64,000 nt of DNA from the sequence record PP274704.1, one strand, 5' to 3'. The position numbers and the translations under genes are program-made. Positions 3,842 through 61,625 of this stretch are shown here, piece by piece. Source of the DNA: Escherichia phage ECp13. Each line of letters starts with the position of its first letter. The stretch's first letter is position 1. The notes under the pieces were generated by a model. That model saw only the letters and a list, made by a program, of their open reading frames with translations. It did not search any database and was not told the origin of the DNA.

Positions 3842-5260
3842 ATGGCTTTTACAGTTGATATAACTCCTAAAACACCTACTGGAGTTATTGATGAAACCAA
3901 GCAGTTTACTGCTGCACCAAGTGGTCAAACCGAAGGTGGAACTATTACCTATGCTTGGAGTGTAGATAATGTTCCACAGGATGGAGCTGAAGCAACTTTT
4001 GATTATGTATTAAAAGGACCTGCCGGTCAAAAGACTATTAAGGTGGTTGCAACAAATACAGTTCCAGAAGCTGATCCTGAAACAGCAGAAACTACGACAA
4101 CTATCACAGTTAAAAATAAAACACAAACAACTACCTTGGCAGTAACTCCTGCTAGTCCTCCAGCTGGAGTAATCGGAACAGCTGTCCAATTTACTGCTGC
4201 CTTAGCTTCACAGCCATCGGGCGCAACAGCCACGTATCAATGGCACGTTGACGGTTCTCCTGTAAGCGAAGCAACTTCTGCTACATTCAATTACACTCCT
4301 ACCACAAGTGGAGTTAAAAAAATCAAGTGCATAGCTCAAGTAACTGCGGCAGATTATGATGCACTGAGCGTTACTTCTAATGAAGTGTCACTGACAGTTA
4401 ATAAAAAGACGCAGACAACTACCTTAGCTGTAACTCCTAATAGTCCTTCAGCTGGAGTAATTGGAACCCCAGTTCAATTTACTGCTGCCTTAGCTTCTCA
4501 ACCCGATGGCGCAACTGCTACATATAAATGGTATGTAGATGATTCTCAAATTGGTGGAGAAACTAACTCTACATTTAACTATACTCCAACTACAAGTGGA
4601 GTAAAAAGAATTAAATGTGTAGCGCAAGTAACTGCAGAAAATTACAATGAAAAGGAAGTTACTTCCAACGAAGTGTCACTGACGGTTAATAAGAAGACAA
4701 TGAATCCACAGGTTGCATTGACTCCTCCTTCTATTAACGTTCAGCAAGATGCTTCGGCTACATTTACAGCTAATGTTACTGGAGCACCTGAAGCAGCACA
4801 AATTACTTATTCATGGAAGAAAGATTCTTCTCCTGTGGAAGGGTCAACTAACGTATACACCGTTGACACCTCATCTATTGGAAGTCAAACTATTGAAGTT
4901 ACTGCTGTCGTTACAGCAACTGACTATGACAGTAAAACAGTTAAAGCAACAGGCCAAGTTCAGGTGACTGATAAAGTTGCTCCGGAACCAGAAGGTGAAT
5001 TGCCTTATGTTCATCCTCTTCCACATCGTACTTCAGCTTATATCTGGTGCGGTTGGTGGGTTATGGATGAAATCCAAAAAATGACCGAAGAAGGTAAAGA
5101 TTGGAAAACTGAAGATCCAGATAGTAAATACTACCTGCACCGTTACACCCTTCAGAAGATGATGAAAGACTATCCAGAAGTTGATGTTCAAGAATCACGT
5201 AATGGATACATCATTCATAAAACTGCTTTAGAAACTGGTATCATCTATACCTATCCATAA
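3842..5260 (+). CDS. hoc: Hoc outer capsid decoration protein with four Ig-like domains
   Basis: 472-aa ORF with repeated ~96-aa Ig-like modules (TTLAVTP...VQFTAALASQP...FNYTPTTSGVK...VSLTV) plus conserved C-terminal capsid-binding region; T4 Hoc is 376 aa. Confidence 0.85.
   Translation: MAFTVDITPKTPTGVIDETKQFTAAPSGQTEGGTITYAWSVDNVPQDGAEATFDYVLKGPAGQKTIKVVATNTVPEADPETAETTTTITVKNKTQTTTLAVTPASPPAGVIGTAVQFTAALASQPSGATATYQWHVDGSPVSEATSATFNYTPTTSGVKKIKCIAQVTAADYDALSVTSNEVSLTVNKKTQTTTLAVTPNSPSAGVIGTPVQFTAALASQPDGATATYKWYVDDSQIGGETNSTFNYTPTTSGVKRIKCVAQVTAENYNEKEVTSNEVSLTVNKKTMNPQVALTPPSINVQQDASATFTANVTGAPEAAQITYSWKKDSSPVEGSTNVYTVDTSSIGSQTIEVTAVVTATDYDSKTVKATGQVQVTDKVAPEPEGELPYVHPLPHRTSAYIWCGWWVMDEIQKMTEEGKDWKTEDPDSKYYLHRYTLQKMMKDYPEVDVQESRNGYIIHKTALETGIIYTYP
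4118..4693 (+). repeat. tandem duplication (2 x ~288 bp) inside hoc encoding two near-identical Ig-like domains
   Basis: Units ~4118-4405 and ~4406-4693 align at roughly 80% nucleotide identity by eye; protein repeats KTQTTTLAVTP...SNEVSLTVNKKT. Confidence 0.8.
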
Positions 5261-20076: not shown

Positions 20077-21778
<1,702 letters not shown>

Positions 21779-21809
21779 TTAAAAATCCTTTGGGCCTTGC
21801 GGCCCCATG

Positions 21810-23267
21810 TTATGCTGGTGATAAAAAGGTAGAAAGTAATACCCATTCGCCGTCTTTACGAACGTAAGCTTGACCATCTTTTGGAGCTTCAGGAATATAA
21901 CCTGCTTCCTGTAAAGTCTGAACATCCGCCTGTAATGAAGATACATTACTTTTAATACTACGCATTTCTTGATTAATAGAAGAAATGTTAGTTTCATTAG
22001 CTTTTATTGAATTAGTTAATCCACGTTCTTCGACAGTTGAACCATTTGGATTTGTTCCATTTACTAATTTATTTAATGTTACAACCTGTCCTTTAATTCC
22101 GGAATTGTTATTACCAATTTCAACTTGCAAGTTTTGAACATCATTATTCAGTCTATTAACGGAAGTTTCAACAGTTGAAACTCTATTTAAAAGAGACCCA
22201 GGAGGAGAAGGTTGTCCACCGCTAGAATCAGTTCCAACAATTTGGTTTAACCACGAAACGTTTGCTCGTAGTCCAGATGAAGTGTTTTCACCTACAATTC
22301 CATTTAAAGACTCAATAGAGGTAGTATTATCTTTAATTTGACCTTTAATACTAGAAGGAATATCATCTGAGCCAATTGATGTTTCAATGACAGTTAATCG
22401 CTGTTTAACACCTCCGCTTTTATTTAGCTCATCAGTTAAAGCTGAAATTTCTCGTGTATTAGTGTTAACATCTGTGATTATTGAAGTATTTCCTGGATAT
22501 CCAATAGAAGTTTTGATAGATTTAATTTCGGAATTAAGATTAATTTGTGATTGATCTAAATTATGCACACGTGAATATATACTTTCACTAAATGAAGGTG
22601 GTCTTTGTCCTAATTCCTGTCTAAGATTTCCTACTTCGATTGTAAGCGAACCTACATCAGATTCAATAAATTTTTCTTCTAAATCACTTAGACGTATTCC
22701 TTGGGAAGTTATAGCATCTGTGTTATTAATAATACGATGCTTCATTCCCGTGCTGGTATTTCCTACAACAGGAAGACCATTAATATCTTGTCCAGCATAT
22801 TGTCCTAGTTCCCTTTTAATCCACAACAAATCATTTCTAATCGTTCTATAAACTGAATTTGCTTGCGAATTAAATGGGCCAATATCAGAAAGAATATTGT
22901 CAACCGTAGTATTTGTACCATTTAATATATCAGTATGTTCACTTGTGAGCGTCTTTAAACTTGATATATCATTTTTATTAACGCTGATTTGTGACAGTGC
23001 TTCTATATCTCCAGATACATCCAAAATGCCTTGAATTGTTTTAATATCTTCCTGAGATGTTTCAACAGCATCTTTAAGAATTCCTATATTTTCATCAAGA
23101 ACCTCAACATTTTTAAACACGGAAACAGTTGGTCTATTCATTGATCCATCGTTTCCATACTTAGTACTAGCTCCTAGTATTTCTTCACCATTTTTAATCC
23201 ATGAAATACGTTCCTGACCTTCGCCAGGAACGCTATCAACAAAAGGTAACTCTTTTAATTCAATCAT
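21810..23267 (-). CDS. wac: fibritin (whisker antigen control)
   Basis: 485-aa ORF of serine-rich coiled-coil segments, foldon-like C-terminus ([27 protein letters not shown]); T4 wac is 487 aa. Confidence 0.9.
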
Positions 23268-40161: not shown

Positions 40162-40854
<693 letters not shown>

Positions 40855-40869
40855 TAATTTCACAAAGTT

Positions 40870-40899
40870 GTTTACATGCTGATGAGGTAGTGATACTAT
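40870..40899 (+). promoter_or_regulatory. early sigma70-type promoter
   Basis: GTTTAC (40870-40875), 18 bp, TACTAT (40894-40899) with TG upstream; 31 nt before the IP-like gene start. Confidence 0.6.
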
Positions 40900-40929
40900 T
40901 ATCTCATCAAAATTAATTAGGAAAATAAA

Positions 40930-41187
40930 ATGAAAACTTTCAAAGAGTTTGCTACAAAAACCACTATCACTGAATCTTCTCACGGTATGGAAGTAAAGCT
41001 TGGAATGGCTTTAGCTGAAGCTGAGCGTCTTTTCTCTCGTATTAAAGAACTTGCTGCTGCAGTCGATCCTTCATCTTTTAAAGGAGACCAAACTAAAGTT
41101 AAAGCACTTTTAGCATTATGCTCCGATGCAGGAGAAATTGCTAAAAATGGTTCTAAGATGAAGAAACGATTAGAAGATTTAAAATAA
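40930..41187 (+). CDS. internal-protein-like small protein with capsid-targeting-like N-terminus
   Basis: 85-aa ORF at the T4 ipI position; MKTFKEFATKTTITE resembles the T4 IP targeting sequence (MKTYQEFIAE) with an I-x-E gp21-type cleavage motif. Confidence 0.6.
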   Translation: MKTFKEFATKTTITESSHGMEVKLGMALAEAERLFSRIKELAAAVDPSSFKGDQTKVKALLALCSDAGEIAKNGSKMKKRLEDLK

Positions 41188-41199
41188 TTTCACAAAGTT

Positions 41200-41229
41200 G
41201 TTTACATAGGGTTTTAGTTGTGATACTAT
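41200..41229 (+). promoter_or_regulatory. early sigma70-type promoter (repeat copy of 40870-40899)
   Basis: GTTTAC, 18 bp, TACTAT; embedded in a 32-bp exact direct repeat of the copy upstream of the IP-like gene. Confidence 0.6.
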
Positions 41230-41257
41230 TACCCTATCAACTACCGAGGAGAATAAA

Positions 41258-41443
41258 ATGAAACGTTGTGAATTAATTCGAAATGTTGCTATTGCAATTT
41301 CTGCTTCCGCTTTTAGTTTTTCAATGTTTGTTGGATTTATATGCGGATTATTGACTACAGCAGAAAATGTGTTTTCACTTGTAGTAGCATTTTTAATTGG
41401 TTTAATTGCTATCGTTATGGATAAAATTTCTAAAGGTGAATAG
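41258..41443 (+). CDS. small membrane protein (2 predicted TM helices)
   Basis: 61-aa hydrophobic ORF with GAGGAG RBS. Confidence 0.55.
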   Translation: MKRCELIRNVAIAISASAFSFSMFVGFICGLLTTAENVFSLVVAFLIGLIAIVMDKISKGE

Positions 41444-42120: not shown

Positions 42121-42636
42121 ATGAATATTTGTTTAGGTACTACAATTCCGCAGGGCTACGTAATTGATGTCACTACCTGGGAAAATGATGGTGACAACTA
42201 TAAAACTAAAACACTGTTTGACGTAGAAGAGCATGAAATCTTACAATTTCAGTATCTTTTAAAGAAGTTTAAAAGCAGATATTCTAGTACTAAAATTGAG
42301 CGCTATTGTGGTAATGGTTTGTTCAGCGAGCAATCTCTTTTTATTTATGAATACTTGGTTGAAGGACTGTTCTCAGACCAGCTTTATCCAGAATTCATTA
42401 AAAAGGTCTTTCGCATAGAAGTTGATCTTGGTAATAAATCTGAAGAAGATGAAGAACGTGTATTTGACTTATTCTTTGTGAATGGTAATAAAGTGCTTGA
42501 AGGACTTATTAATATTTTAGGTAATGCTTCTGAGTATTATGATTATGATTTTTTGCGTGTAGTTGAGAGTGTTAAATACTCTTATATAGAAGAAGAAATT
42601 GTTTTGCCGACAGTTAAAATGTTTAATTTGCTTTAA
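42121..42636 (+). CDS. hypothetical protein
   Basis: 171 aa from ATG 42121 (track starts at a GTG at 42112); acidic segments. Confidence 0.5.
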   Translation: MNICLGTTIPQGYVIDVTTWENDGDNYKTKTLFDVEEHEILQFQYLLKKFKSRYSSTKIERYCGNGLFSEQSLFIYEYLVEGLFSDQLYPEFIKKVFRIEVDLGNKSEEDEERVFDLFFVNGNKVLEGLINILGNASEYYDYDFLRVVESVKYSYIEEEIVLPTVKMFNLL

Positions 42637-42720
42637 GAATTATTTGTTATTATTAACTCATATCGCACTGATTAATACCCTCTATCATCAAGGGTTCTTG
42701 TTTGAGAGCCTTTGTTAATA

Positions 42721-42781
42721 ATTTTGGTAGAGCGCCTGATTTGGGATCAGGAGGTCCAAGGTTCAAATCCTTGTATGGAGA
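42721..42781 (+). pseudogene. tRNA-Pro(UGG) 3' fragment (5' acceptor and D-arm missing)
   Basis: Intact anticodon arm (CCTGA-tttggga-TCAGG, anticodon TGG), variable loop, T-arm (CAAGG-ttcaaat-CCTTG) and 3' acceptor TATGGAG; no complementary 5' acceptor or D-stem upstream. Confidence 0.5.
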
Positions 42782-42783
42782 CT

Positions 42784-42883
42784 GGAGGCGTGGCAGAGTG
42801 GTTTAATGCACCGGTCTTGAAAACCGGCAGTCGCTCCGGCGACTCATACTAGGTCGTAGGTTCGATCCCTACTGCCTCGACCA
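42784..42883 (+). tRNA. tRNA-Ser(UGA), type II with long variable arm, CCA encoded
   Basis: Acceptor GGAGGCG, D-arm GCA-gagtggtttaa-TGC, anticodon arm CCGGT-cttgaaa-ACCGG (anticodon TGA), variable stem GTCGC/GCGAC, T-arm GTAGG-ttcgatc-CCTAC, 3' TGCCTCG-A-CCA; immediately follows the Pro fragment as in the T4 Pro-Ser pair. Confidence 0.6.
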
Positions 42884-43051
42884 AACAAGAAACCGGGTCG
42901 CTACCGGTAAGTCGTCGGACTGATGTTCCCTGGAGTATAGTTCCTCCCACAGTTTTACTGTGTTCTGGTTCTTTACTATCACAGCTGAAACGGCGCACCG
43001 AATTATCGATTCGAGGAAATATCTTTGCCGTAAGCCGAGTAGCGTTTTTGA

Positions 43052-43143: not shown

Positions 43144-43195
43144 ACAAACACTTGCCTTAGCAGGTGGAACCCCGACAAGGTTGCCGCAAGGCTTA

Positions 43196-43222
43196 GCCCC
43201 GACCGAAAGGTTGGGGCTTTTT
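43196..43222 (+). terminator. intrinsic terminator closing the tRNA/small-RNA region
   Basis: CCCCGACC-gaaa-GGTTGGGG hairpin followed by CTTTTT. Confidence 0.65.
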
Positions 43223-43224
43223 AG

Positions 43225-43232
43225 TATAAATA
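43225..43232 (+). promoter_or_regulatory. late promoter (TATAAATA) for the IP-like gene at 43273
   Basis: TATAAATA on plus strand, 41 nt upstream of the ATG. Confidence 0.55.
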
Positions 43233-43272
43233 TAGTAGTATATTAAATCCACGAATTAAAACAGGAAATAAG

Positions 43273-43746
43273 ATGAAATCATATGCTCAATTTTTAAATG
43301 AAGCGGTGTTAAATGAAGCATCTAGCACCGAAATTCAAGCCGTCGCAAAAGCAGCCATTGCAGCGGGTAAATATTCCTATAAAGATGCTTCTGACGAATC
43401 ACGATTCCAATTTGCTCGCGACATGAAAGCAGAAGGATTTACGGGAAATGCGGTTAGTATGGCCTGGAAAAGTCTAGTTGCTACTGGCGCTGCTTTTGCA
43501 AAGGCTTCGGGTAAACCTGCTCCTAAAGCAGATCCTAAAGCTGCACAAGAAAAAAATATCGTTAAAGGAATTATCGCTAAATATGAAGCTATCCTTAAAG
43601 AGCTTTTAGTAATCAAAACCGAAGGCCAAAAGTTAGCCCGTGCTTATAGTTTCAAAGATAATCCACATGTTCACTCTCTTGAGTATGTTGAAGACATTCA
43701 AAAAATTATTAAAGACCGCATTTGGTCTGCTAAACAAATCAAATAA
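43273..43746 (+). CDS. internal-protein-like protein with capsid-targeting-like N-terminus
   Basis: 157-aa ORF; MKSYAQFLNE-A resembles the 10-residue T4 IP targeting sequence ending in an L-x-E cleavage motif; late promoter upstream. Confidence 0.6.
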   Translation: MKSYAQFLNEAVLNEASSTEIQAVAKAAIAAGKYSYKDASDESRFQFARDMKAEGFTGNAVSMAWKSLVATGAAFAKASGKPAPKADPKAAQEKNIVKGIIAKYEAILKELLVIKTEGQKLARAYSFKDNPHVHSLEYVEDIQKIIKDRIWSAKQIK

Positions 43747-43755
43747 CATTCTTAA

Positions 43756-43782
43756 CCCCGACCAAAAGGTTGGGGCTTTTTG
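43756..43782 (+). terminator. intrinsic terminator (second copy of the 43196 hairpin)
   Basis: CCCCGACC-aaaa-GGTTGGGG followed by CTTTTT, 10 nt after the IP-like stop. Confidence 0.65.
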
Positions 43783-43914
43783 GTATCTAGGCCTTTCTGG
43801 ACCTCTCTAGGCATCATTTAGTTTATACCCTTTATAATATATTATCCTATCTTTTAATTGCCCCTCCCTGCCCTAGAATTCCCTAAAAATTTTTAAAAAT
43901 TTTTTCACAAAACT

Positions 43915-43944
43915 ATTTACATCCCTGTTCTTCCATGGTACTAT
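43915..43944 (+). promoter_or_regulatory. early sigma70-type promoter (conserved module TGGTACTATACAACTATCAACT)
   Basis: TTTACA at 43916-43921, 17 bp, TACTAT (43939-43944). Confidence 0.6.
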
Positions 43945-43988
43945 ACAACTATCAACTACTGATACAGAAAAACAACTTGGAGAATGAA

Positions 43989-44252
43989 ATGGATAATTAC
44001 GGCGAACTGTTCAACTTCTTTATGAAATGCGTTTCAGAAGATTTCGGTCGTACAGTGAATGATATTAAAGTTATCGGTCCTGACCATCCGATGTTTGAAA
44101 CTTACGCAGTAATGGGTAATGAAGACGGACAGTGGTATACTGTAAAGGTTGTGATTAACATGTTCACAGCAGAAGGTTATGTTAAACTGTCTTCTAAAGT
44201 TTACCACGATAACGACGAAATCGCAGAAGAATATTTCAATAATATGAAATAA
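43989..44252 (+). CDS. hypothetical protein
   Basis: 87 aa from ATG 43989 (GGAGA RBS 9 nt upstream); track ORF starts further upstream at 43935. Confidence 0.5.
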   Translation: MDNYGELFNFFMKCVSEDFGRTVNDIKVIGPDHPMFETYAVMGNEDGQWYTVKVVINMFTAEGYVKLSSKVYHDNDEIAEEYFNNMK

Positions 44253-44282
44253 GTTTACATAGGCTCATGATTGAGATATTAT
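44253..44282 (+). promoter_or_regulatory. early sigma70-type promoter
   Basis: GTTTAC (44253-44258), 18 bp, TATTAT (44277-44282). Confidence 0.55.
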
Positions 44283-44308
44283 GAGCCTACAATTTGAGGA
44301 AAACCGTT

Positions 44309-44839
44309 ATGTCTCTTTATACCGAACTGAATGAAACTTCCGAAAAATCTTTTGATGATATCTTATCAATAATGCAAAAACAGGTATTAGAACAGCTTAG
44401 TGAAGCCGCAAGCAATGGGCACAAGGCTTGTCGAGTCCAAAGCCCACATCGCCGCATGTATGAACGCCCTCTTATTAATTGGCTAGAAAGCGAAGGTCTT
44501 ACAGTTAAGATTTGCCCTGCTAAATTTGATGTCCCACGTATTCTTAATATTTACTGGGATAAACCGGCTGAGAAATCGGTTGAGAAAAGTGACCCTTGGG
44601 TTGTTAATGTAAAAACATGTGACAGTGGATGCTCACTTGAGGTGTCTGCTGTAATTAAAGGCACTCATGGTGAAAAATCATGGGGTTGGCCTAGTAAAGA
44701 TAAAGAAATCGTGTTAAGTGTAAAAGCTACTAGTATTAGTACTCCTATAGCTAAAAGCATTATCGCCGCCGCCGTTGAAGAAGCTGAACGAATTTGTAAA
44801 ATTAAAAATAGTTTACATCTCTTAAATAGTATGATATAA
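44309..44839 (+). CDS. hypothetical protein
   Basis: 176 aa from ATG 44309 (RBS GAGGAA); track ORF begins at a TTG at 44294. Confidence 0.5.
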   Translation: MSLYTELNETSEKSFDDILSIMQKQVLEQLSEAASNGHKACRVQSPHRRMYERPLINWLESEGLTVKICPAKFDVPRILNIYWDKPAEKSVEKSDPWVVNVKTCDSGCSLEVSAVIKGTHGEKSWGWPSKDKEIVLSVKATSISTPIAKSIIAAAVEEAERICKIKNSLHLLNSMI

Positions 44840-44881
44840 TTCTTCCACAGATTTTATTTTTAATCAACCTAAGGAAATACT

Positions 44882-45475
44882 ATGAACACACTGAAGAAAA
44901 TTGTTGAATTTATTCGCACTAAACTTGGTTCTGCTATGGCTAAAAATCTATCTGTTGAAGAACAGTATACTGCTGCAGCAGCAAAACTGCTTGATAAAAT
45001 TAAAGATCTAAAAACTGCTTCTGTTAAATCTATTAATGAAGAAAAACGTATTCGTGAACTTATTGTCGAAAAGAATCGACAGGCCGAATCAAAAGAGCGT
45101 GAAATTCGTAAACTTCTTTCCGAAGGTCAAGATGTAACAATGCATGCTAAACTCGGTTTACTATATCGTCGAACAGCTGAGCAGTTGACTACTAAGGCTG
45201 ACGGTTATGCTGAAATGCGAATTGAAATCGCCAAGAAAGTAGTTGAGTTAGATGATGCTCGCCAAGAACTTGCAGTTAAATTGGAATATATCCGTGAAAC
45301 TCGTGCAGCAAATGCCCTTGGAATTAGTACTGCCGATGATGTAGTTGAAATTGCAGCACTGACTAAGGTTGATATTGAAGATACTCTTGCTCGAGTTGAA
45401 ACCTTTAACGGTAATATTTCTGGGGTTGAAACTACCTCTGCCGATGTTCAGGAATACATTAATTCTCTGAAATAA
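44882..45475 (+). CDS. coiled-coil protein with PspA/IM30-like architecture
   Basis: 197-aa ORF; N-terminal amphipathic segment then long heptad-rich helices; local resemblance to E. coli PspA (for example LARVETF versus PspA ARFESFE). Confidence 0.45.
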
Positions 45476-45516
45476 TGATAAGGGGCTTCGGCCCCTTATA
45501 CTTGGAGTAAATAGGA

Positions 45517-46131
45517 ATGAAAATGAAAATGCAAAGTGATTTCAATTCAATGTTTGAAGAGTTCCAAAGACAGGTTGATGTTCCAGATCAATTACTAAAT
45601 GCTCTTAAGCGTATGGCAGAAGGACGTAATTACTATTGGGGGTCTTCATATGAAACTGATGAAAGCCTTTCCGGAAGATTTTCTAGAGGTAAAAAGTCTT
45701 TAATACGTCCTGGAATACTCATTAACAGTATTGAATCAATTCATTCATTGACATGTGATTTTGATGTTGAATTTACTGATTTCATTTCTCCTGAATGGAC
45801 AGTTTGTTATTTAAATGACGATTATGATTATCTTGGCGTTTATAGTTTAAGTGACGCATGGTTTAAACGTAATTTACAAAAGTCAAATTTGTTCTATATT
45901 GATACTACGGTAAAATTTCAGGGAAAGAAATATTTCTTTACTCTTATAATTGATTCTGAAACAAAGCATGAAAATAAACGTATTCTTAGTAAAAAGAATA
46001 TCTTAACTATTGTTGATGATCTTTTTGATAAATTCGTGGAAAATCCCAATTTTGAAAGCGATTTATTATTAGAAAAATTTGTTAAGGAATGTAGAGAATA
46101 TGTCAAAGCCATCACTATACCTTCCAAGTAA
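45517..46131 (+). CDS. hypothetical protein
   Basis: 204-aa ORF with GGAG RBS. Confidence 0.5.
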   Translation: MKMKMQSDFNSMFEEFQRQVDVPDQLLNALKRMAEGRNYYWGSSYETDESLSGRFSRGKKSLIRPGILINSIESIHSLTCDFDVEFTDFISPEWTVCYLNDDYDYLGVYSLSDAWFKRNLQKSNLFYIDTTVKFQGKKYFFTLIIDSETKHENKRILSKKNILTIVDDLFDKFVENPNFESDLLLEKFVKECREYVKAITIPSK

Positions 46132-46492
46132 ACCTGTGAAGTATGAATTAAAGCGTCAGATAATTTCTACTGATGTGTTAATAGGTCCTGTGGTAGCTGT
46201 ATCATTTGTGATTTTGCTGATTGCTGGAATGGTTATAGACGTTATGACTGATATTGAATCTGGTGTAATATTTGGAGCAACACTAATTCTTCCATTGGTA
46301 GTTCCGTTTTTATTAGTACCTGTAAATTGGGTAGGATACTGGTATCAAGGAAGACACTATCGTAAACGCGTACGCGAATGGAAAGCTCAGTGTAAAAAGA
46401 TTAAAAAGGAACACCAGCTTAAACTTGATATGTATGAATTTAATGAAATTATGAAATTTGTTAAGGAATCACGATGCAAAAGCCAAAACTAA
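46100..46492 (+). CDS. small membrane protein (2 TM), paralog 1 of 3
   Basis: 130 aa from ATG 46100; two hydrophobic helices; C-terminal motif KFVKESRCK shared with the next two ORFs. Confidence 0.5.
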   Translation: MSKPSLYLPSKPVKYELKRQIISTDVLIGPVVAVSFVILLIAGMVIDVMTDIESGVIFGATLILPLVVPFLLVPVNWVGYWYQGRHYRKRVREWKAQCKKIKKEHQLKLDMYEFNEIMKFVKESRCKSQN

Positions 46493-46836
46493 ATAAAGTT
46501 AAATATTCGTTTCCTGAGGCACTATTAATTCTTGCCGTATCAGCATTTGTAGCTCTTGCAGGTAGTCTTATTGGATTAATGATTGACTGTATTATTTTAA
46601 ACATCGACGGCCCAGTAATTATAGAAGAGGTTTGGAGTGAACTTCGTTATACTATAGCGATTTCATTATTTTCATTCTTTGGTACCATGTTATATTTTCA
46701 TTATGATAATTTTAAAATAAATTGGCAAAGAAAAAAGGATTACAAAATACAATTAAAGGAATATAATAGCTACATGTCTTATATTGAAAATGAATCAATG
46801 AAAGAGTTTGTGAGTGATTGTAGGAAAATCAAATGA
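46474..46836 (+). CDS. small membrane protein (2 TM), paralog 2 of 3
   Basis: 120-aa ORF; two hydrophobic helices; C-terminal EFVSDCRKIK. Confidence 0.5.
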   Translation: MQKPKLNKVKYSFPEALLILAVSAFVALAGSLIGLMIDCIILNIDGPVIIEEVWSELRYTIAISLFSFFGTMLYFHYDNFKINWQRKKDYKIQLKEYNSYMSYIENESMKEFVSDCRKIK

Positions 46837-47321
46837 TTTTAAAAACTCGCTGGTATGATTTAGATGATGGGGACGATGGCATTTCATTTGATAGAGTTGA
46901 CTGGAGCGGCTGTTCTGAAGATACAAAGAAACGATTAATTAGGGAGTTTAGAATGGGATATCAAGCAGTTAAGCCATCTACTGTAACAGATGATAAATTC
47001 GTGTGTATTCAAAATGGCCGTGCTAAGTTAACGAATGCTGATTGGTTTACAGGCAAGAATATGCTTTTATGGTATATCATTAGTCTTCCTGTGTCATCAT
47101 TCGTATTTTATTTCTTTGGAAAAAATCCAATGGATAGAATAGGAGATTGGGCTCTTTTTACTCTGCTTGTTAATATTTTTATAACAGCAGTAATATCAGG
47201 AATATGGTGCGTGTTCATTGAAATGCCATGGCGGTTACGTAGGCAGCAAAAGATTTTTGATGAAAAGAAATATACCCAAAATTTAAATAACTTTATCACT
47301 GAATGCAGGAAATTAAAATGA
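46833..47321 (+). CDS. small membrane protein (2 TM), paralog 3 of 3
   Basis: 162-aa ORF; two hydrophobic helices; C-terminal NFITECRKLK. Confidence 0.5.
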   Translation: MILKTRWYDLDDGDDGISFDRVDWSGCSEDTKKRLIREFRMGYQAVKPSTVTDDKFVCIQNGRAKLTNADWFTGKNMLLWYIISLPVSSFVFYFFGKNPMDRIGDWALFTLLVNIFITAVISGIWCVFIEMPWRLRRQQKIFDEKKYTQNLNNFITECRKLK

Positions 47322-47758: not shown

Positions 47759-48289
<531 letters not shown>

Positions 48290-48293
48290 AGTT

Positions 48294-48323
48294 GTTTACT
48301 TTCTCCTAGAATTGTGATAGTAT
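48294..48323 (+). promoter_or_regulatory. early sigma70-type promoter for denV
   Basis: GTTTAC (48294-48299), 18 bp, TAGTAT (48318-48323); 25 nt upstream of denV ATG. Confidence 0.55.
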
Positions 48324-48348
48324 ATTAACAGTTACTTGGAGGGATAAA

Positions 48349-51396: not shown

Positions 51397-51426
51397 GTTT
51401 ACTTTTCCTCTTGACTGTGGTATAAT
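51397..51426 (+). promoter_or_regulatory. early sigma70-type promoter for regB
   Basis: GTTTAC (51397-51402), 18 bp, TGG-TATAAT (51421-51426). Confidence 0.65.
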
Positions 51427-55556: not shown

Positions 55557-55580
55557 AGTCTCCTTCGGGAGACTTTTTTC
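55557..55580 (+). terminator. intrinsic terminator after rI.1
   Basis: AGTCTCC-ttcg-GGAGACT hairpin followed by TTTTTT. Confidence 0.7.
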
Positions 55581-55589
55581 ATTTTACCG

Positions 55590-55619
55590 GTTTACTTTCC
55601 ATTTGAGCTGTGATACTAT
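55590..55619 (+). promoter_or_regulatory. early sigma70-type promoter
   Basis: GTTTAC (55590-55595), 18 bp, TACTAT (55614-55619). Confidence 0.6.
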
Positions 55620-55647
55620 ACAACCATCGGATAAAGAGGAGAACATC

Positions 55648-55836
55648 ATGAAAATTGAAGCACTCAATCAAGAAGGAAATATCTACGTCATCATTAATGG
55701 TGATTTTTTCGTCAACATGGATGAAGTTACTAGTGAAGAACTTGTAGAACTTCTTAAGAAACGCTATAGTATGTGTGATGAAGCTGCGACTCATATGGCG
55801 TGTGCAATATTTTCTCTTTCATATGTGGTGGAATAA
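55648..55836 (+). CDS. small hypothetical protein
   Basis: 62 aa from ATG 55648 (RBS AAGAGGAG). Confidence 0.5.
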
Positions 55837-56380: not shown

Positions 56381-56410
56381 GTTTACAAGTTGGCAAGGTT
56401 ATGGTATAGT
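56381..56410 (+). promoter_or_regulatory. early sigma70-type promoter
   Basis: GTTTAC (56381-56386), 18 bp, TATAGT (56405-56410). Confidence 0.55.
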
Positions 56411-59551: not shown

Positions 59552-59553
59552 TA

Positions 59554-59580
59554 GGGAGCCTTCGGGCTCCCTTTTTATTT
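59554..59580 (+). terminator. intrinsic terminator after the NTase-fold gene
   Basis: GGGAGCC-ttcg-GGCTCCC hairpin followed by TTTTTATTT. Confidence 0.7.
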
Positions 59581-59600
59581 CAAAATTTTTTCACAAAACG

Positions 59601-59630
59601 GTTTACAAGCATAAAGCTTTATGGTACTAT
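59601..59630 (+). promoter_or_regulatory. early sigma70-type promoter (conserved module)
   Basis: GTTTAC (59601-59606), 18 bp, TACTAT (59625-59630); shares TGGTACTATACAACTATCAACT with the 43915 and 61040 promoters. Confidence 0.6.
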
Positions 59631-59664
59631 ACAACTATCAACTGATACGGATTTGGAGAATAAA

Positions 59665-60633
59665 ATGAAAACTGTAACTATCAATAAGGGTATCTACTTC
59701 GGTAAAGAAATCTCTGGAACTTTTGAGCTCTTAGGCGAATGGTTCCCAGATAATGCTCCGGTAGATGCACAAGGAGATGGTAAAGTTTTTGTTGAAATTG
59801 ACGGTAAACGTCGCGGTGTTTGGGTTTACAAATCAGATATTTCATATGATGGTGTAAAGGTTGAAGAAGTTAAAGAATCGTATGAAGATATGAAAACCCG
59901 CATTAATAAAAGATTTAATGTTATGGGAATGATGACGAATGGTATTATTAATGGAAATATTCGTTCATTGATTATCTCTGGTGCAGCAGGTATTGGTAAA
60001 ACGTATTCTTTAGATAAAGCTTTAAATAAAGCAAATGATATTGGATACATTGAATATAAAAGTATTAATGGTAAAATCTCTGGTATTGGTCTTTATGAGC
60101 AGCTTTGGAATAATCGTGAAGAGAATTCTGTCCTTTTGATTGATGATGTGGATGTTTTCTCTGATATGGACATTCTTAATCTTCTAAAAGCCGCTCTGGA
60201 CACCGGAGAGACCCGTAAAGTCTGCTGGAGCACTGCGTCTTCTTACTTAGAAGAAAAAGGCATTGAGCGTGAGTTTGAATTTAAAGGAACGATTGTTTTT
60301 ATCACAAACGTTGACATTGACCGCGAATTAGACCGTGGTACTAAACTTGCTCCACATTTACAAGCATTAGTGTCCCGCTCGGTTTATTTGGATTTGGGTG
60401 TTCACACTAATGAAGAAATTATGGTCAGGGTTGAAGATGTTATTCTTTCAACTGACATGATGCAAAAGCGCGGTCTTTCTGATGAAGAAACTTATAAAGC
60501 ATTATCATGGATGAAAGTTAATGTTAATCGTTTACGCAATGTTTCACTGCGTACTGCTCTTTATCTTGCTGACTTTATTATGACCGACAAAAACGGTTGG
60601 GAAGAAATCGCTGAGGTTACTCTTCTGAAATAA
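59665..60633 (+). CDS. AAA+ family ATPase
   Basis: 322 aa from ATG 59665 (RBS GGAGAA); Walker A GAAGIGKT, Walker B VLLIDDVD, sensor-like FITN. Confidence 0.6.
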   Translation: MKTVTINKGIYFGKEISGTFELLGEWFPDNAPVDAQGDGKVFVEIDGKRRGVWVYKSDISYDGVKVEEVKESYEDMKTRINKRFNVMGMMTNGIINGNIRSLIISGAAGIGKTYSLDKALNKANDIGYIEYKSINGKISGIGLYEQLWNNREENSVLLIDDVDVFSDMDILNLLKAALDTGETRKVCWSTASSYLEEKGIEREFEFKGTIVFITNVDIDRELDRGTKLAPHLQALVSRSVYLDLGVHTNEEIMVRVEDVILSTDMMQKRGLSDEETYKALSWMKVNVNRLRNVSLRTALYLADFIMTDKNGWEEIAEVTLLK

Positions 60634-60734: not shown

Positions 60735-61037
60735 ATGTTATACTCAAAGGCTCGTGAAATTTACGAAACTAAAATTAAAGAAGCAGTATTTCAGTTCGCA
60801 ACAACGATGCGATGGACAAATGATTGGGAGTATTCAAAAAATCATAAGAAGCCCATGGTGGCAAGAAAGGCTCATATGTTAGTGTTAATAGACCGTGAGC
60901 AGATTAAAGCCCGAGAAGCCCTCCAGAATCACAAAAAGGCTGCCTTTGAATGGTTTATGGATAACACTGCTCCTGAGACCAAGAAAGCAGTGAGCGCCTG
61001 GTTCAGTGGAAAAAATTGTGAAAGAAGTTTCTTTTAG
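60735..61037 (+). CDS. hypothetical protein
   Basis: 100 aa from ATG 60735 (RBS GGAGG at 5 nt). Confidence 0.5.
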   Translation: MLYSKAREIYETKIKEAVFQFATTMRWTNDWEYSKNHKKPMVARKAHMLVLIDREQIKAREALQNHKKAAFEWFMDNTAPETKKAVSAWFSGKNCERSFF

Positions 61038-61039
61038 TG

Positions 61040-61069
61040 GTTTACAAGACTATTCCTCTGTGGTACTAT
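61040..61069 (+). promoter_or_regulatory. early sigma70-type promoter (conserved module)
   Basis: GTTTAC (61040-61045), 18 bp, TACTAT (61064-61069). Confidence 0.6.
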
Positions 61070-61097
61070 ACAACTATCAACTACGGAGGAACAGAAA

Positions 61098-61625
61098 ATG
61101 AACGCTAAAGATATTTTCAACTTGGTAAATTATAACGATGGTAAATTTAAATCTGAAGCACAAAGCAAGTTCTTTAATGACATCTCAATCGGAGGTGAAA
61201 TCACTGTTGATGGAGGACAAATTTACAAATCCCGTTGGAATTGGATCGTTATTATCGATGAGATCGGTATTGTAGAAATTTACAAGAATACGAATAAAAA
61301 TCGTACATTACACTGGTCTCGTGATACTAACGAACAGCACAAAAAGGATAAAGCATCTAAATTATCTCGTGTAACTCAAGAAGATATTGAGTTCATCAAG
61401 AAAGATATTTTAATGTATGATAACTTAATTGCTGAAGAGCAAGCTGTTATTGATAAATTTGACGAGATTAAAGCTTCTCGTGAAATTCCTGATTTTATGA
61501 AAGAATCAGTAAATGAACGATACTCTCTCATTTCAGAGCGTATTGAAACTTACAAAAAGCAAAGAGCTGAACGCCAAAATACTCTTCGGAAGTTTGAAGA
61601 ACGGTTAAAGACGGTACTCGCATAA
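61098..61625 (+). CDS. hypothetical protein
   Basis: 175-aa ORF with RBS GGAGGA. Confidence 0.5.
   Translation: MNAKDIFNLVNYNDGKFKSEAQSKFFNDISIGGEITVDGGQIYKSRWNWIVIIDEIGIVEIYKNTNKNRTLHWSRDTNEQHKKDKASKLSRVTQEDIEFIKKDILMYDNLIAEEQAVIDKFDEIKASREIPDFMKESVNERYSLISERIETYKKQRAERQNTLRKFEERLKTVLA

Follow-up and report, generated by a model that had tools for sequence, protein, structure and literature searches.

The stretch of DNA analysed here (hereafter the window) comprises 64,000 nucleotides of Escherichia phage ECp13 (PP274704.1) and, judged by nucleotide comparison, is a segment of a Tequatrovirus (T4-like) genome. A database search revealed that positions 43200-46200 are 99% identical to Shigella and Escherichia Tequatrovirus genomes (ESh16, KNP1 and pSs-1), with 661 phage records matching this interval. 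Alignment with T4 places the 37-64 kb part of the window as the reverse complement of T4 map positions 49-77 kb, collinear with T4 genes 4 to nrdC.6, all of which lie on the + strand of the window. The gene order begins with 4, 2, 3, 1, 57A, 57B, ipI, trna.4-.2 and a largely deleted tRNA cluster, and continues with e.8 to e, denV, the vs genes, regB, tk, rI, mobD.x and nrdC.11 to nrdC.6. Gene 57B (40403-40861), annotated as anti-CBASS Acb1 in the P8 record, displays a frameshift near codon 121 relative to pSs-1 and loses its last 30 residues; either a genuine inactivation or an error of sequencing could explain this. At 4106-4681, inside the late structural-gene region, two copies of a 288-nt sequence (77% identity) form a tandem direct repeat.

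The tRNA cluster, which normally lies between trna.2 and e.8, was considered as the source of the repeats described below and rejected, since ARAGORN called no tRNAs in the window and most of the cluster has been lost. Relative to each of the eight related genomes used in this work, the region 42617-42890 lacks 264 nt at 42723 and 400-960 nt at 42848-42887. Rfam detects tRNA-like stretches at 42710-42781 (30 bits) and 42784-42880 (49 bits); when aligned with T4 and P8, the former looks like a 5'-truncated tRNA-Pro and the latter like the 5' part of a tRNA-Ser joined to the 3' end of a tRNA-Arg. The fusion and the truncation suggest that the deletion arose via exchange between tRNA genes.

The original prediction held that a promoter-like module recurs at 43899-43968, 59585-59650 and 61038-61087. 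This recurrence is confirmed by the exact 22-mer TGGTACTATACAACTATCAACT, present in all three copies at 43936, 59622 and 61061 on the + strand (three matches, against 0.00 expected from 100 shuffles). The pattern GTTTACA-N17-TACTAT, allowing at most two mismatches, is about four-fold enriched (12 matches, 2.98 expected), and a repeat search recovered the repeat families, including the related copies at 40842-40910, 41172-41240 and 55590-55637; those proposed at 40846-40900, 41176-41230 and 55590-55625 thus stand, being found also by the T4-trained matrix described below. Details of the proposed module require correction. The upstream block TTTTTCACAAAAC occurs at 43899 and 59585 and is absent from the 61038 copy, and the GTTTACA motif does not hold for the 43899 copy, whose -35 element is ATTTAC and not GTTTAC. 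Dispersed direct repeats are real, but they are not duplicates of about 50-65 bp: the spacers of the three principal copies are unrelated, and the repeat is thus a set of conserved blocks and not one contiguous sequence.

A position weight matrix trained on 34 T4 early promoters identified exactly 11 sites in the 64 kb, all on the + strand and scoring 17-55 bits against a shuffle maximum of 11.4 (Table 1). All 11 lie within the accessory region at 40.8-61.1 kb, where their neighbours are IP genes and small ORFs of unknown function, and none falls in the 37 kb of structural genes. The discriminating scan in the window is that for the T4-specific pattern only, unlike the generic sigma-70 consensus, which was uninformative (84 sites against 78.8 expected; 47 against 43.4). 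The six copies listed originally are among the seven best-scoring sites, and five sites (e.7, e.6, after e, regB and mobD.2a) had been missed. Transcription starts were predicted 36 nt downstream of the -35 G, a distance calibrated on the T4 RefSeq note "early promoter Pe133295" and the scanned -35 at 133331; for the ipI, trna.4 and mobD.5 promoters this gives predicted starts at 40906, 41236 and 55626.

Table 1. Hairpins and predicted early promoters of the window, in order of position.
Feature	Position (strand)	-35	-10	Predicted +1	Shine-Dalgarno	ATG	Score (bits)	Other elements
Promoter of the ip gene (ipI), T4 PE2	40842..40932 (+)	40870-40875	40894-40899			40930		7-bp inverted repeat TGATGAG/CTCATCA wrapping the -10
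Promoter of trna.4, T4 PE1	41172..41260 (+)	41200-41205	41224-41229			41258		Inverted repeat ATAGGGT/ACCCTAT around the -10
Terminator hairpin ending the tRNA/rnaC region; left copy of 36-nt direct repeat	43192..43227 (+)							-20.3 kcal/mol
Right copy of 36-nt hairpin repeat	43751..43786 (+)							92% identity between the two copies
Hairpin	43756-43775							AAAA loop
Early promoter of e.8 (matrix scan, T4 orthology)	43887..43991 (+)	ATTTAC 43915-43920	TGn plus TACTAT 43936-43944	A43951	GGAG 43979-43982	43989	54.4	UP-like block 43892-43912
Early promoter of e.7 (-35 to -10)	44253..44282 (+)	from 44253					17.4	
Early promoter of e.6	44811..44840 (+)	from 44811					17.2	
Early promoter downstream of e (lysozyme), denV/ip side	48294..48323 (+)	from 48294					35.1	
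Early promoter of regB	51397..51426 (+)	from 51397					38.4	Spacer TCCTCTT complementary to SD region AAGAGGA
Terminator hairpin of rI.-1	55557-55574							UUCG loop; -10.8 kcal/mol; 16 nt from mobD.5 -35
Early promoter of mobD.5, after rI.-1 terminator hairpin	55557..55650 (+)	55590-55595	55614-55619			55648	43.2	
Early promoter upstream of mobD.2a-like ORF	56381..56410 (+)	from 56381					43.7	
Terminator hairpin of nrdC.11	59553-59572							UUCG loop; -18.4 kcal/mol; 29 nt from nrdC.10 -35
Early promoter of nrdC.10, preceded by nrdC.11 terminator hairpin	59553..59667 (+)	59601-59606	59625-59630	59637	59655-59658	59665	55.3	UP 59578-59598; palindromic spacer ATAAAGCTTTAT
Early promoter of nrdC.8	61010..61100 (+)	61040-61045	61064-61069	61076	61085-61089	61098	54.8	Without TTTCACAAA block and without upstream hairpin

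Each of the 11 promoters has a T4 counterpart at the same gene junction with near-identical sequence, and individual spacers are conserved among positional orthologues in T4, T2, pSs-1 and P8. The three principal copies thus correspond to the T4 early promoters of e.8, nrdC.10 and nrdC.8, the orthologue of the e.8 copy being the T4 promoter with its -35 at T4 coordinate 70696. The T4 record X03016 (1985) annotates PE2 and PE1, equivalent to window positions 40870 and 41200, with potential stem-loops over both; unlike this older record, NC_000866 and AF158101 carry no promoter annotation. A total of 546 phage records contain the 75-nt nrdC.10 module, with about 5.4 occurrences per genome, and some of them label it "promoter" or "terminator". 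T4 early promoters are UP/-35/TGn/-10 promoters with additional regions of consensus (Hinton 2010, PMC2988021). Among the papers searched, no genome-wide transcription start-site data set for T4 was found. On this basis the repeats are immediate-early promoters of a T4-like phage, with promoter activity deduced from T4 annotation and the literature.

Copies of the module had been proposed to follow GC tetraloop terminators directly. This applies to two of the 11 promoters, those of mobD.5 and nrdC.10, where the hairpins at 55557 and 59553 abut the -35; the hairpin at 43756 lies ~140 nt upstream of the e.8 promoter. The e.8 copy itself (43899-43968) displays neither an abutting GC hairpin nor an inverted repeat wrapping the -10, and retains a decayed hairpin remnant only. 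The T4 equivalent of the hairpin at 43192-43227 is recorded as a potential terminator in X03016. A different structure is more frequent: inverted repeats of at least 6 bp wrap the -10 in six of the 11 window promoters (-35 starts 40870, 41200, 44253, 51397, 56381 and 61040); the first arm lies in the -35/-10 spacer and the second immediately downstream of the -10, which itself occupies the loop. At regB the 3' arm is the Shine-Dalgarno sequence. Across T4, perfect inverted repeats of this kind occur in 17 of 36 promoters, where permutation of partners predicts 3.6 (at most 8 in 500 permutations). For the T4 genes e, soc, 49 and I-TevI, hairpins are described that surround a promoter and, in read-through transcripts, cover the ribosome-binding site; these classical hairpins involve late promoters. 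The early promoters described here are similar, in that about half carry an inverted repeat with arms in the spacer and downstream of the -10, but, in contrast with the classical late-promoter hairpins, theirs are annotated solely as potential terminators (X03016).

The copies are more alike than a shared promoter consensus predicts. Promoter sets were simulated from the family's own position frequencies, and in-register exact runs of at least 22 nt were counted. Four promoter pairs in the window display such runs (32, 24, 23 and 22 nt), while only 0.1% of simulated 11-promoter sets contain even one. T4 itself presents 21 such pairs against 0.01 expected, the longest run extending over 58 nt between the nrdC.10 and frd.3 promoters and including an identical 18-nt spacer. 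The 32-nt run in the window is common to the 40842 and 41172 modules. Gene 57B in relatives ends in ...DDLK* and the window ip gene in ...EDLK*, encoded by the same codons, so this repeat (40842-40870, 41172-41200) includes a gene 3' end and not the promoter alone. The copies form a dispersed repeat family: each Tequatrovirus genome has about five to six modules of the 75-nt nrdC.10 type, set among ~36 early promoters in T4. Alignment of the subfamily reveals a mosaic of shared pieces, namely hairpin/T-run/UP, spacers, a -10-to-leader block and SD-ATG, which implies that copies descend from, or have recombined with, one another. The conserved blocks map to regions contacted by RNA polymerase, and among orthologues in five genomes (window, T4, T2, pSs-1 and P8) the 22-mer does not vary while spacers drift, so that purifying selection clearly plays a part. 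Both ACAACTATCAAC and TTTCACAAA are missing from 50 kb of JS98, a phage of another genus infecting the same host. JS98 carries a recurrent block of its own, CATGATACTATAGACCTATCAACT (locus 1-50000, minus strand), present also at the orthologous nrdC.8 promoter, and its spacer is mostly one base shorter; the start-site CTATCAAC is the sole block common to the window family and JS98. Selection for polymerase contacts therefore explains part of the likeness, while the identical blocks particular to each lineage indicate that copies share descent or have exchanged sequence.

Relatives show rearrangements at several of these sites, with the endpoints of indels and swaps located inside modules. In chained alignments with eight relatives (T4, pSs-1, T2, P8, ZN18, ECML-134, N2 and BECP11), the REARRANGEMENTS comparison yielded 35 breakpoint clusters, grouped into about 14 variable loci. 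Ten of the 35 fall in module zones covering 5.7% of the region (p = 1.8e-5), and seven of the eight indel or replacement events with a direct repeat of at least 20 nt at both ends use module or hairpin sequence. At the ip locus, the variable cassette with the ip gene at 40930-41187 has the 69-nt module at 40842 as its left boundary and the one at 41172 as its right. An additional ip gene is found here in T2 and ECML-134, bordered by repeats of the trna.4 module (84 nt and 47 nt), and T2 displays a chimeric promoter in which a trna.4-type upstream half is joined at TACTAT to an ipI-type downstream half. The ORF at 43273-43746 lies between the two 36-nt hairpin copies and is absent from T4, T2 and N2, while pSs-1, ZN18 and ECML-134 contain, at the second hairpin, a further segment of 634-645 nt with another ORF, flanked by 44-55-nt repeats. 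The product of ORF 43273-43746 (157 aa, PHROG 2280, no Pfam match) begins with MKSYAQFLNEA, a sequence similar to the N-terminus that targets T4 internal proteins to the capsid; the N-termini compared with it were MKTYQEFITEA (48775) and MKTFKEFATK (40930).

Further downstream, the e.7 cassette is replaced or deleted between a left boundary at the 44253 promoter (breakpoints 44252-44304) and a right boundary at 44811 (44828-44865), and the variable ipIII/ipII/denV block has the 48294 promoter as its left boundary (breakpoints 48278-48348). The nrdC.11/nrdC.10 junction is a rearrangement hot spot, with at least five alternative cassettes (T2/N2, P8, ECML-134, ZN18 and BECP11) whose endpoints lie inside the module. 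In T2 and N2, hairpin/T-run/UP/GTTTAC repeats form the cassette boundaries; the crossovers of ECML-134, ZN18 and BECP11 map to TACAACTATCAA and to GGAGAATAAAATGAAAACT; in P8 the crossover is just past the start codon, and ZN18 retains a degraded half-promoter. Database-wide, this junction displays insertions of several sizes. The cassette inserted in T2 and N2 is a 486-nt ORF (T2 locus 21590-22075; N2 locus 22376-22861) that appears to be a candidate match to an ORF of HY01 (NC_027349) and ECO07P3 labelled "RNA polymerase ADP-ribosylase" or "modA_2".

The proposal that the copies mark the boundaries of accessory cassettes thus applies to 40846, 41176 and 59585, and fails for 43899-43968, 61038 and 55590, which are intact in about 500 of 500-600 related genomes. 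In particular, the e.8 junction is intact in 514 of 544 related records, the mobD.5 junction in 499 of 501 and the nrdC.8 junction in 498 of 614, the remainder of the latter (more distant genera, 80-90% identity) also aligning across the promoter. The regB (51397) and mobD.2a-like (56381) modules show no rearrangement in the eight-genome panel. Elsewhere, variable sites fall at homing endonuclease genes, at tRNA genes or at overlaps of ribosome-binding sites with start and stop codons. T2 and ZN18 both lack the ORF at 46833-47321, and the junction shows an overlap of 30 nt (46807-46836, 47292-47321); this repeat, at 46807 and 47292, is a ribosome-binding site plus start/stop overlap (..AGGAAAATCAAATGA / ..AGGAAATTAAAATGA) and not a promoter, and translational-coupling signals therefore act as exchange points as well. 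The accompanying claim that candidate novel genes lie beside the modules was not borne out, as all eight tested module-associated or window-specific ORFs belong to existing PHROG families, two of them being internal head/virion proteins.

The reading we favour, with a probability of roughly 80%, is that the immediate-early promoters double as short homology tracts for cassette exchange. Each module, which would be read by host sigma-70 RNA polymerase, comprises an A/T-rich UP-like block AAAATTTTTTCACAAAAC, a -35 GTTTAC(A/T), a 17-nt spacer ending in TG (extended -10), a -10 TACTAT/TATAAT, a conserved start region cTATCAAC and a short leader that contains a GGAG Shine-Dalgarno before the ATG, some copies lying directly 3' of what would be the intrinsic terminator of the upstream gene. 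As every cassette opens with the same 20-60 nt, these could provide short homology tracts for the phage recombination machinery. Exchange at modules would insert, delete or swap promoter-led ORF cassettes encoding internal head proteins and small accessory genes, and expression signals would survive module-to-module exchange intact. The repeats, their excess similarity, their T4 orthology, and the indel endpoints and chimeric promoters inside modules are the observations behind this reading; that the recombination is homologous rather than site-specific, and any mini-circle intermediate, we infer.

Endpoints might also gather at modules solely because intergenic DNA tolerates rearrangement, recombination itself not being targeted to them. 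Judged against gene junctions alone, the association is weak: eight of 12 module-bearing junctions are variable and 16 of 45 others (OR 3.6, p = 0.054), and this enrichment is only suggestive. Two thirds of the variable gene junctions (16 of 24) lack a module, and other junctions use microhomology at ribosome-binding sites and start/stop codons, as such a filter on viability would predict. It does not readily account for the predominance of module or hairpin sequence among the events with long direct repeats (seven of eight), for endpoints that lie on the shared blocks (-35, -10/+1, SD-ATG) and not elsewhere in intergenic DNA, or for the independent states, at least five, of the nrdC.11/nrdC.10 junction, and we regard tolerance of intergenic rearrangement as a rather unlikely sole explanation. 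Pure convergence, in which selection for one optimal E. coli RNA polymerase promoter and leader (and for Alt/RegB control) makes the copies alike and recombination has no role, would fit the location of the conserved blocks at the UP, -35, TGn/-10 and start, as well as the unrelated spacers of the three principal copies, the 22-mer that is constant among orthologues whose spacers vary, the occurrence of CTATCAAC in JS98 also, and the stability of three of the six listed copies in ~500 genomes. However, a model of independent columns almost never yields the exact runs observed, distant T4 loci (nrdC.10/frd.3, 58-nt run) share identical 18-nt spacers and whole leaders, JS98 uses a different shared block in the same host, and chimeric promoters and repeat-flanked cassettes are found. 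Convergence as the whole explanation is accordingly judged improbable.

Cassette exchange might also be driven by an enzyme of a dedicated system, site-specific or transposition-based (integron-like or MITE-like), with the modules as its attachment sites; Arbiol 2010 (PMC2839356) left site-specific recombination open and detected cassette mini-circles in RB49/phi1. The crossovers seen here are instead scattered over the -35, -10/+1, SD and ATG and present no single core, and neither target-site duplications nor terminal inverted repeats were seen at the modules. Pfam and PHROG searches revealed no integrase or transposase domains in the flanking genes, and the "integrase/recombinase" labels of the T2 record are automatic similarity names unsupported by Pfam; nrdC.10 has a weak AAA-like match, and nrdC.11 is a RlaP nucleotidyltransferase. 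A dedicated system of this type is very improbable.

Beyond short-homology exchange at promoters, a broader and more tentative idea, which we hold to be possible though doubtful, is concerted evolution of the early promoters within each T-even lineage. Blocks of 20-60 nt would be homogenised across the genome by gene conversion between dispersed copies; in Tequatrovirus these would be ACAACTATCAACT plus TTTCACAAA, in JS98 CATGATACTATAGACCTATCAACT, and even orthologous promoters would be reached. Stem-loops wrapping the -10 would act as combined terminator/promoter units, and the promoter set would constitute a genome-wide network of recombination sites in which the rate of exchange is set by the length of the shared block. 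The lineage-specific JS98 block CATGATACTATAGACCTATCAACT is the signature expected of concerted promoter evolution.

The region carries injected internal proteins, small early genes and the counter-defence genes 57B/Acb1 and vs.4/Acb2 (names from the P8 record), and so the exchange of such cassettes among T4-like phages matters for host range and for phage-therapy cocktails. What the window adds to known work is a clean documented example, the nrdC.11/nrdC.10 junction, to be read with the caution that most copies are stable and most variable junctions lack a module. Residual interest lies in the way promoter blocks appear to evolve in concert inside a lineage, and in the frequent stem-loop enclosing the -10.

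The architecture, positions and downstream genes of the T4 Pe promoters (PE1/PE2, X03016) are the same as those of the window modules, and the sequences are near-identical, spacers included; the window differs from T4 by ATTTAC for GTTTAC at the e.8 promoter, another ip gene, another e.7 and the absence of ipII/ipIII after e. The modules had been likened to the promoter-early-stem-loop (PeSL) elements of T4-type phages, and this likeness is upheld in its core. As described for RB49/phi1, a PeSL unites an AT-rich region, early promoter, stem-loop, SD and ATG; ORF cassettes are lost or gained by recombination between copies, mini-circles are detected by inverse PCR, and crossovers map either to the stretch from the -10 to the ATG or to the stem-loop/AT-rich region (Arbiol 2010, PMC2839356). 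In Comeau 2014 (PMC4122927), the concept is extended to PST/T4 with the consensus TTTACW-N17-TAYWAT, elements at two IP loci are credited to Repoila 1994, and the T-even elements are described as based on T4 early promoters with weaker AT-rich stem-loops, analogues and not homologues of the RB49/phi1 PeSLs. The window modules fit this consensus and combine an AT-rich region, early promoter, SD and ATG in intergenic space. Indel endpoints lie inside them at the ip locus, at e.7, downstream of e, at nrdC.11/nrdC.10 and at the two hairpin copies, and are not found there at 43915, 51397, 55590, 56381 and 61040. Similar to the window modules, the PST/T4 PeSLs adjoin variable small ORFs and IP genes, have indels ending in or near the elements and include degraded half-elements, and there is no conceptual difference between the two. 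As the modules match a published concept already extended to T4/PST, the feature is already known, although the nrdC.11/nrdC.10 hot spot and the hairpin-flanked 43273-43746 cassette are not among the examples named in the text and figure legends consulted of Comeau 2014 (PMC4122927). The RB49/phi1 PeSLs resemble the window modules in the combination of AT-rich region, early promoter, SD and ATG, in cassette indels and in crossover positions, and differ in having near-perfect TTGACA/TATAAT promoters, polyG/polyC stems and mini-circles demonstrated experimentally. Integron cassettes (attC) are comparable in that short repeated boundaries flank promoter-dependent accessory ORF cassettes that are gained or lost as units. 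Unlike integrons, the window modules have no integrase domain among their flanking genes and no single crossover core, each cassette has its own promoter, and general homologous or short-homology recombination is the simplest account of the exchange.
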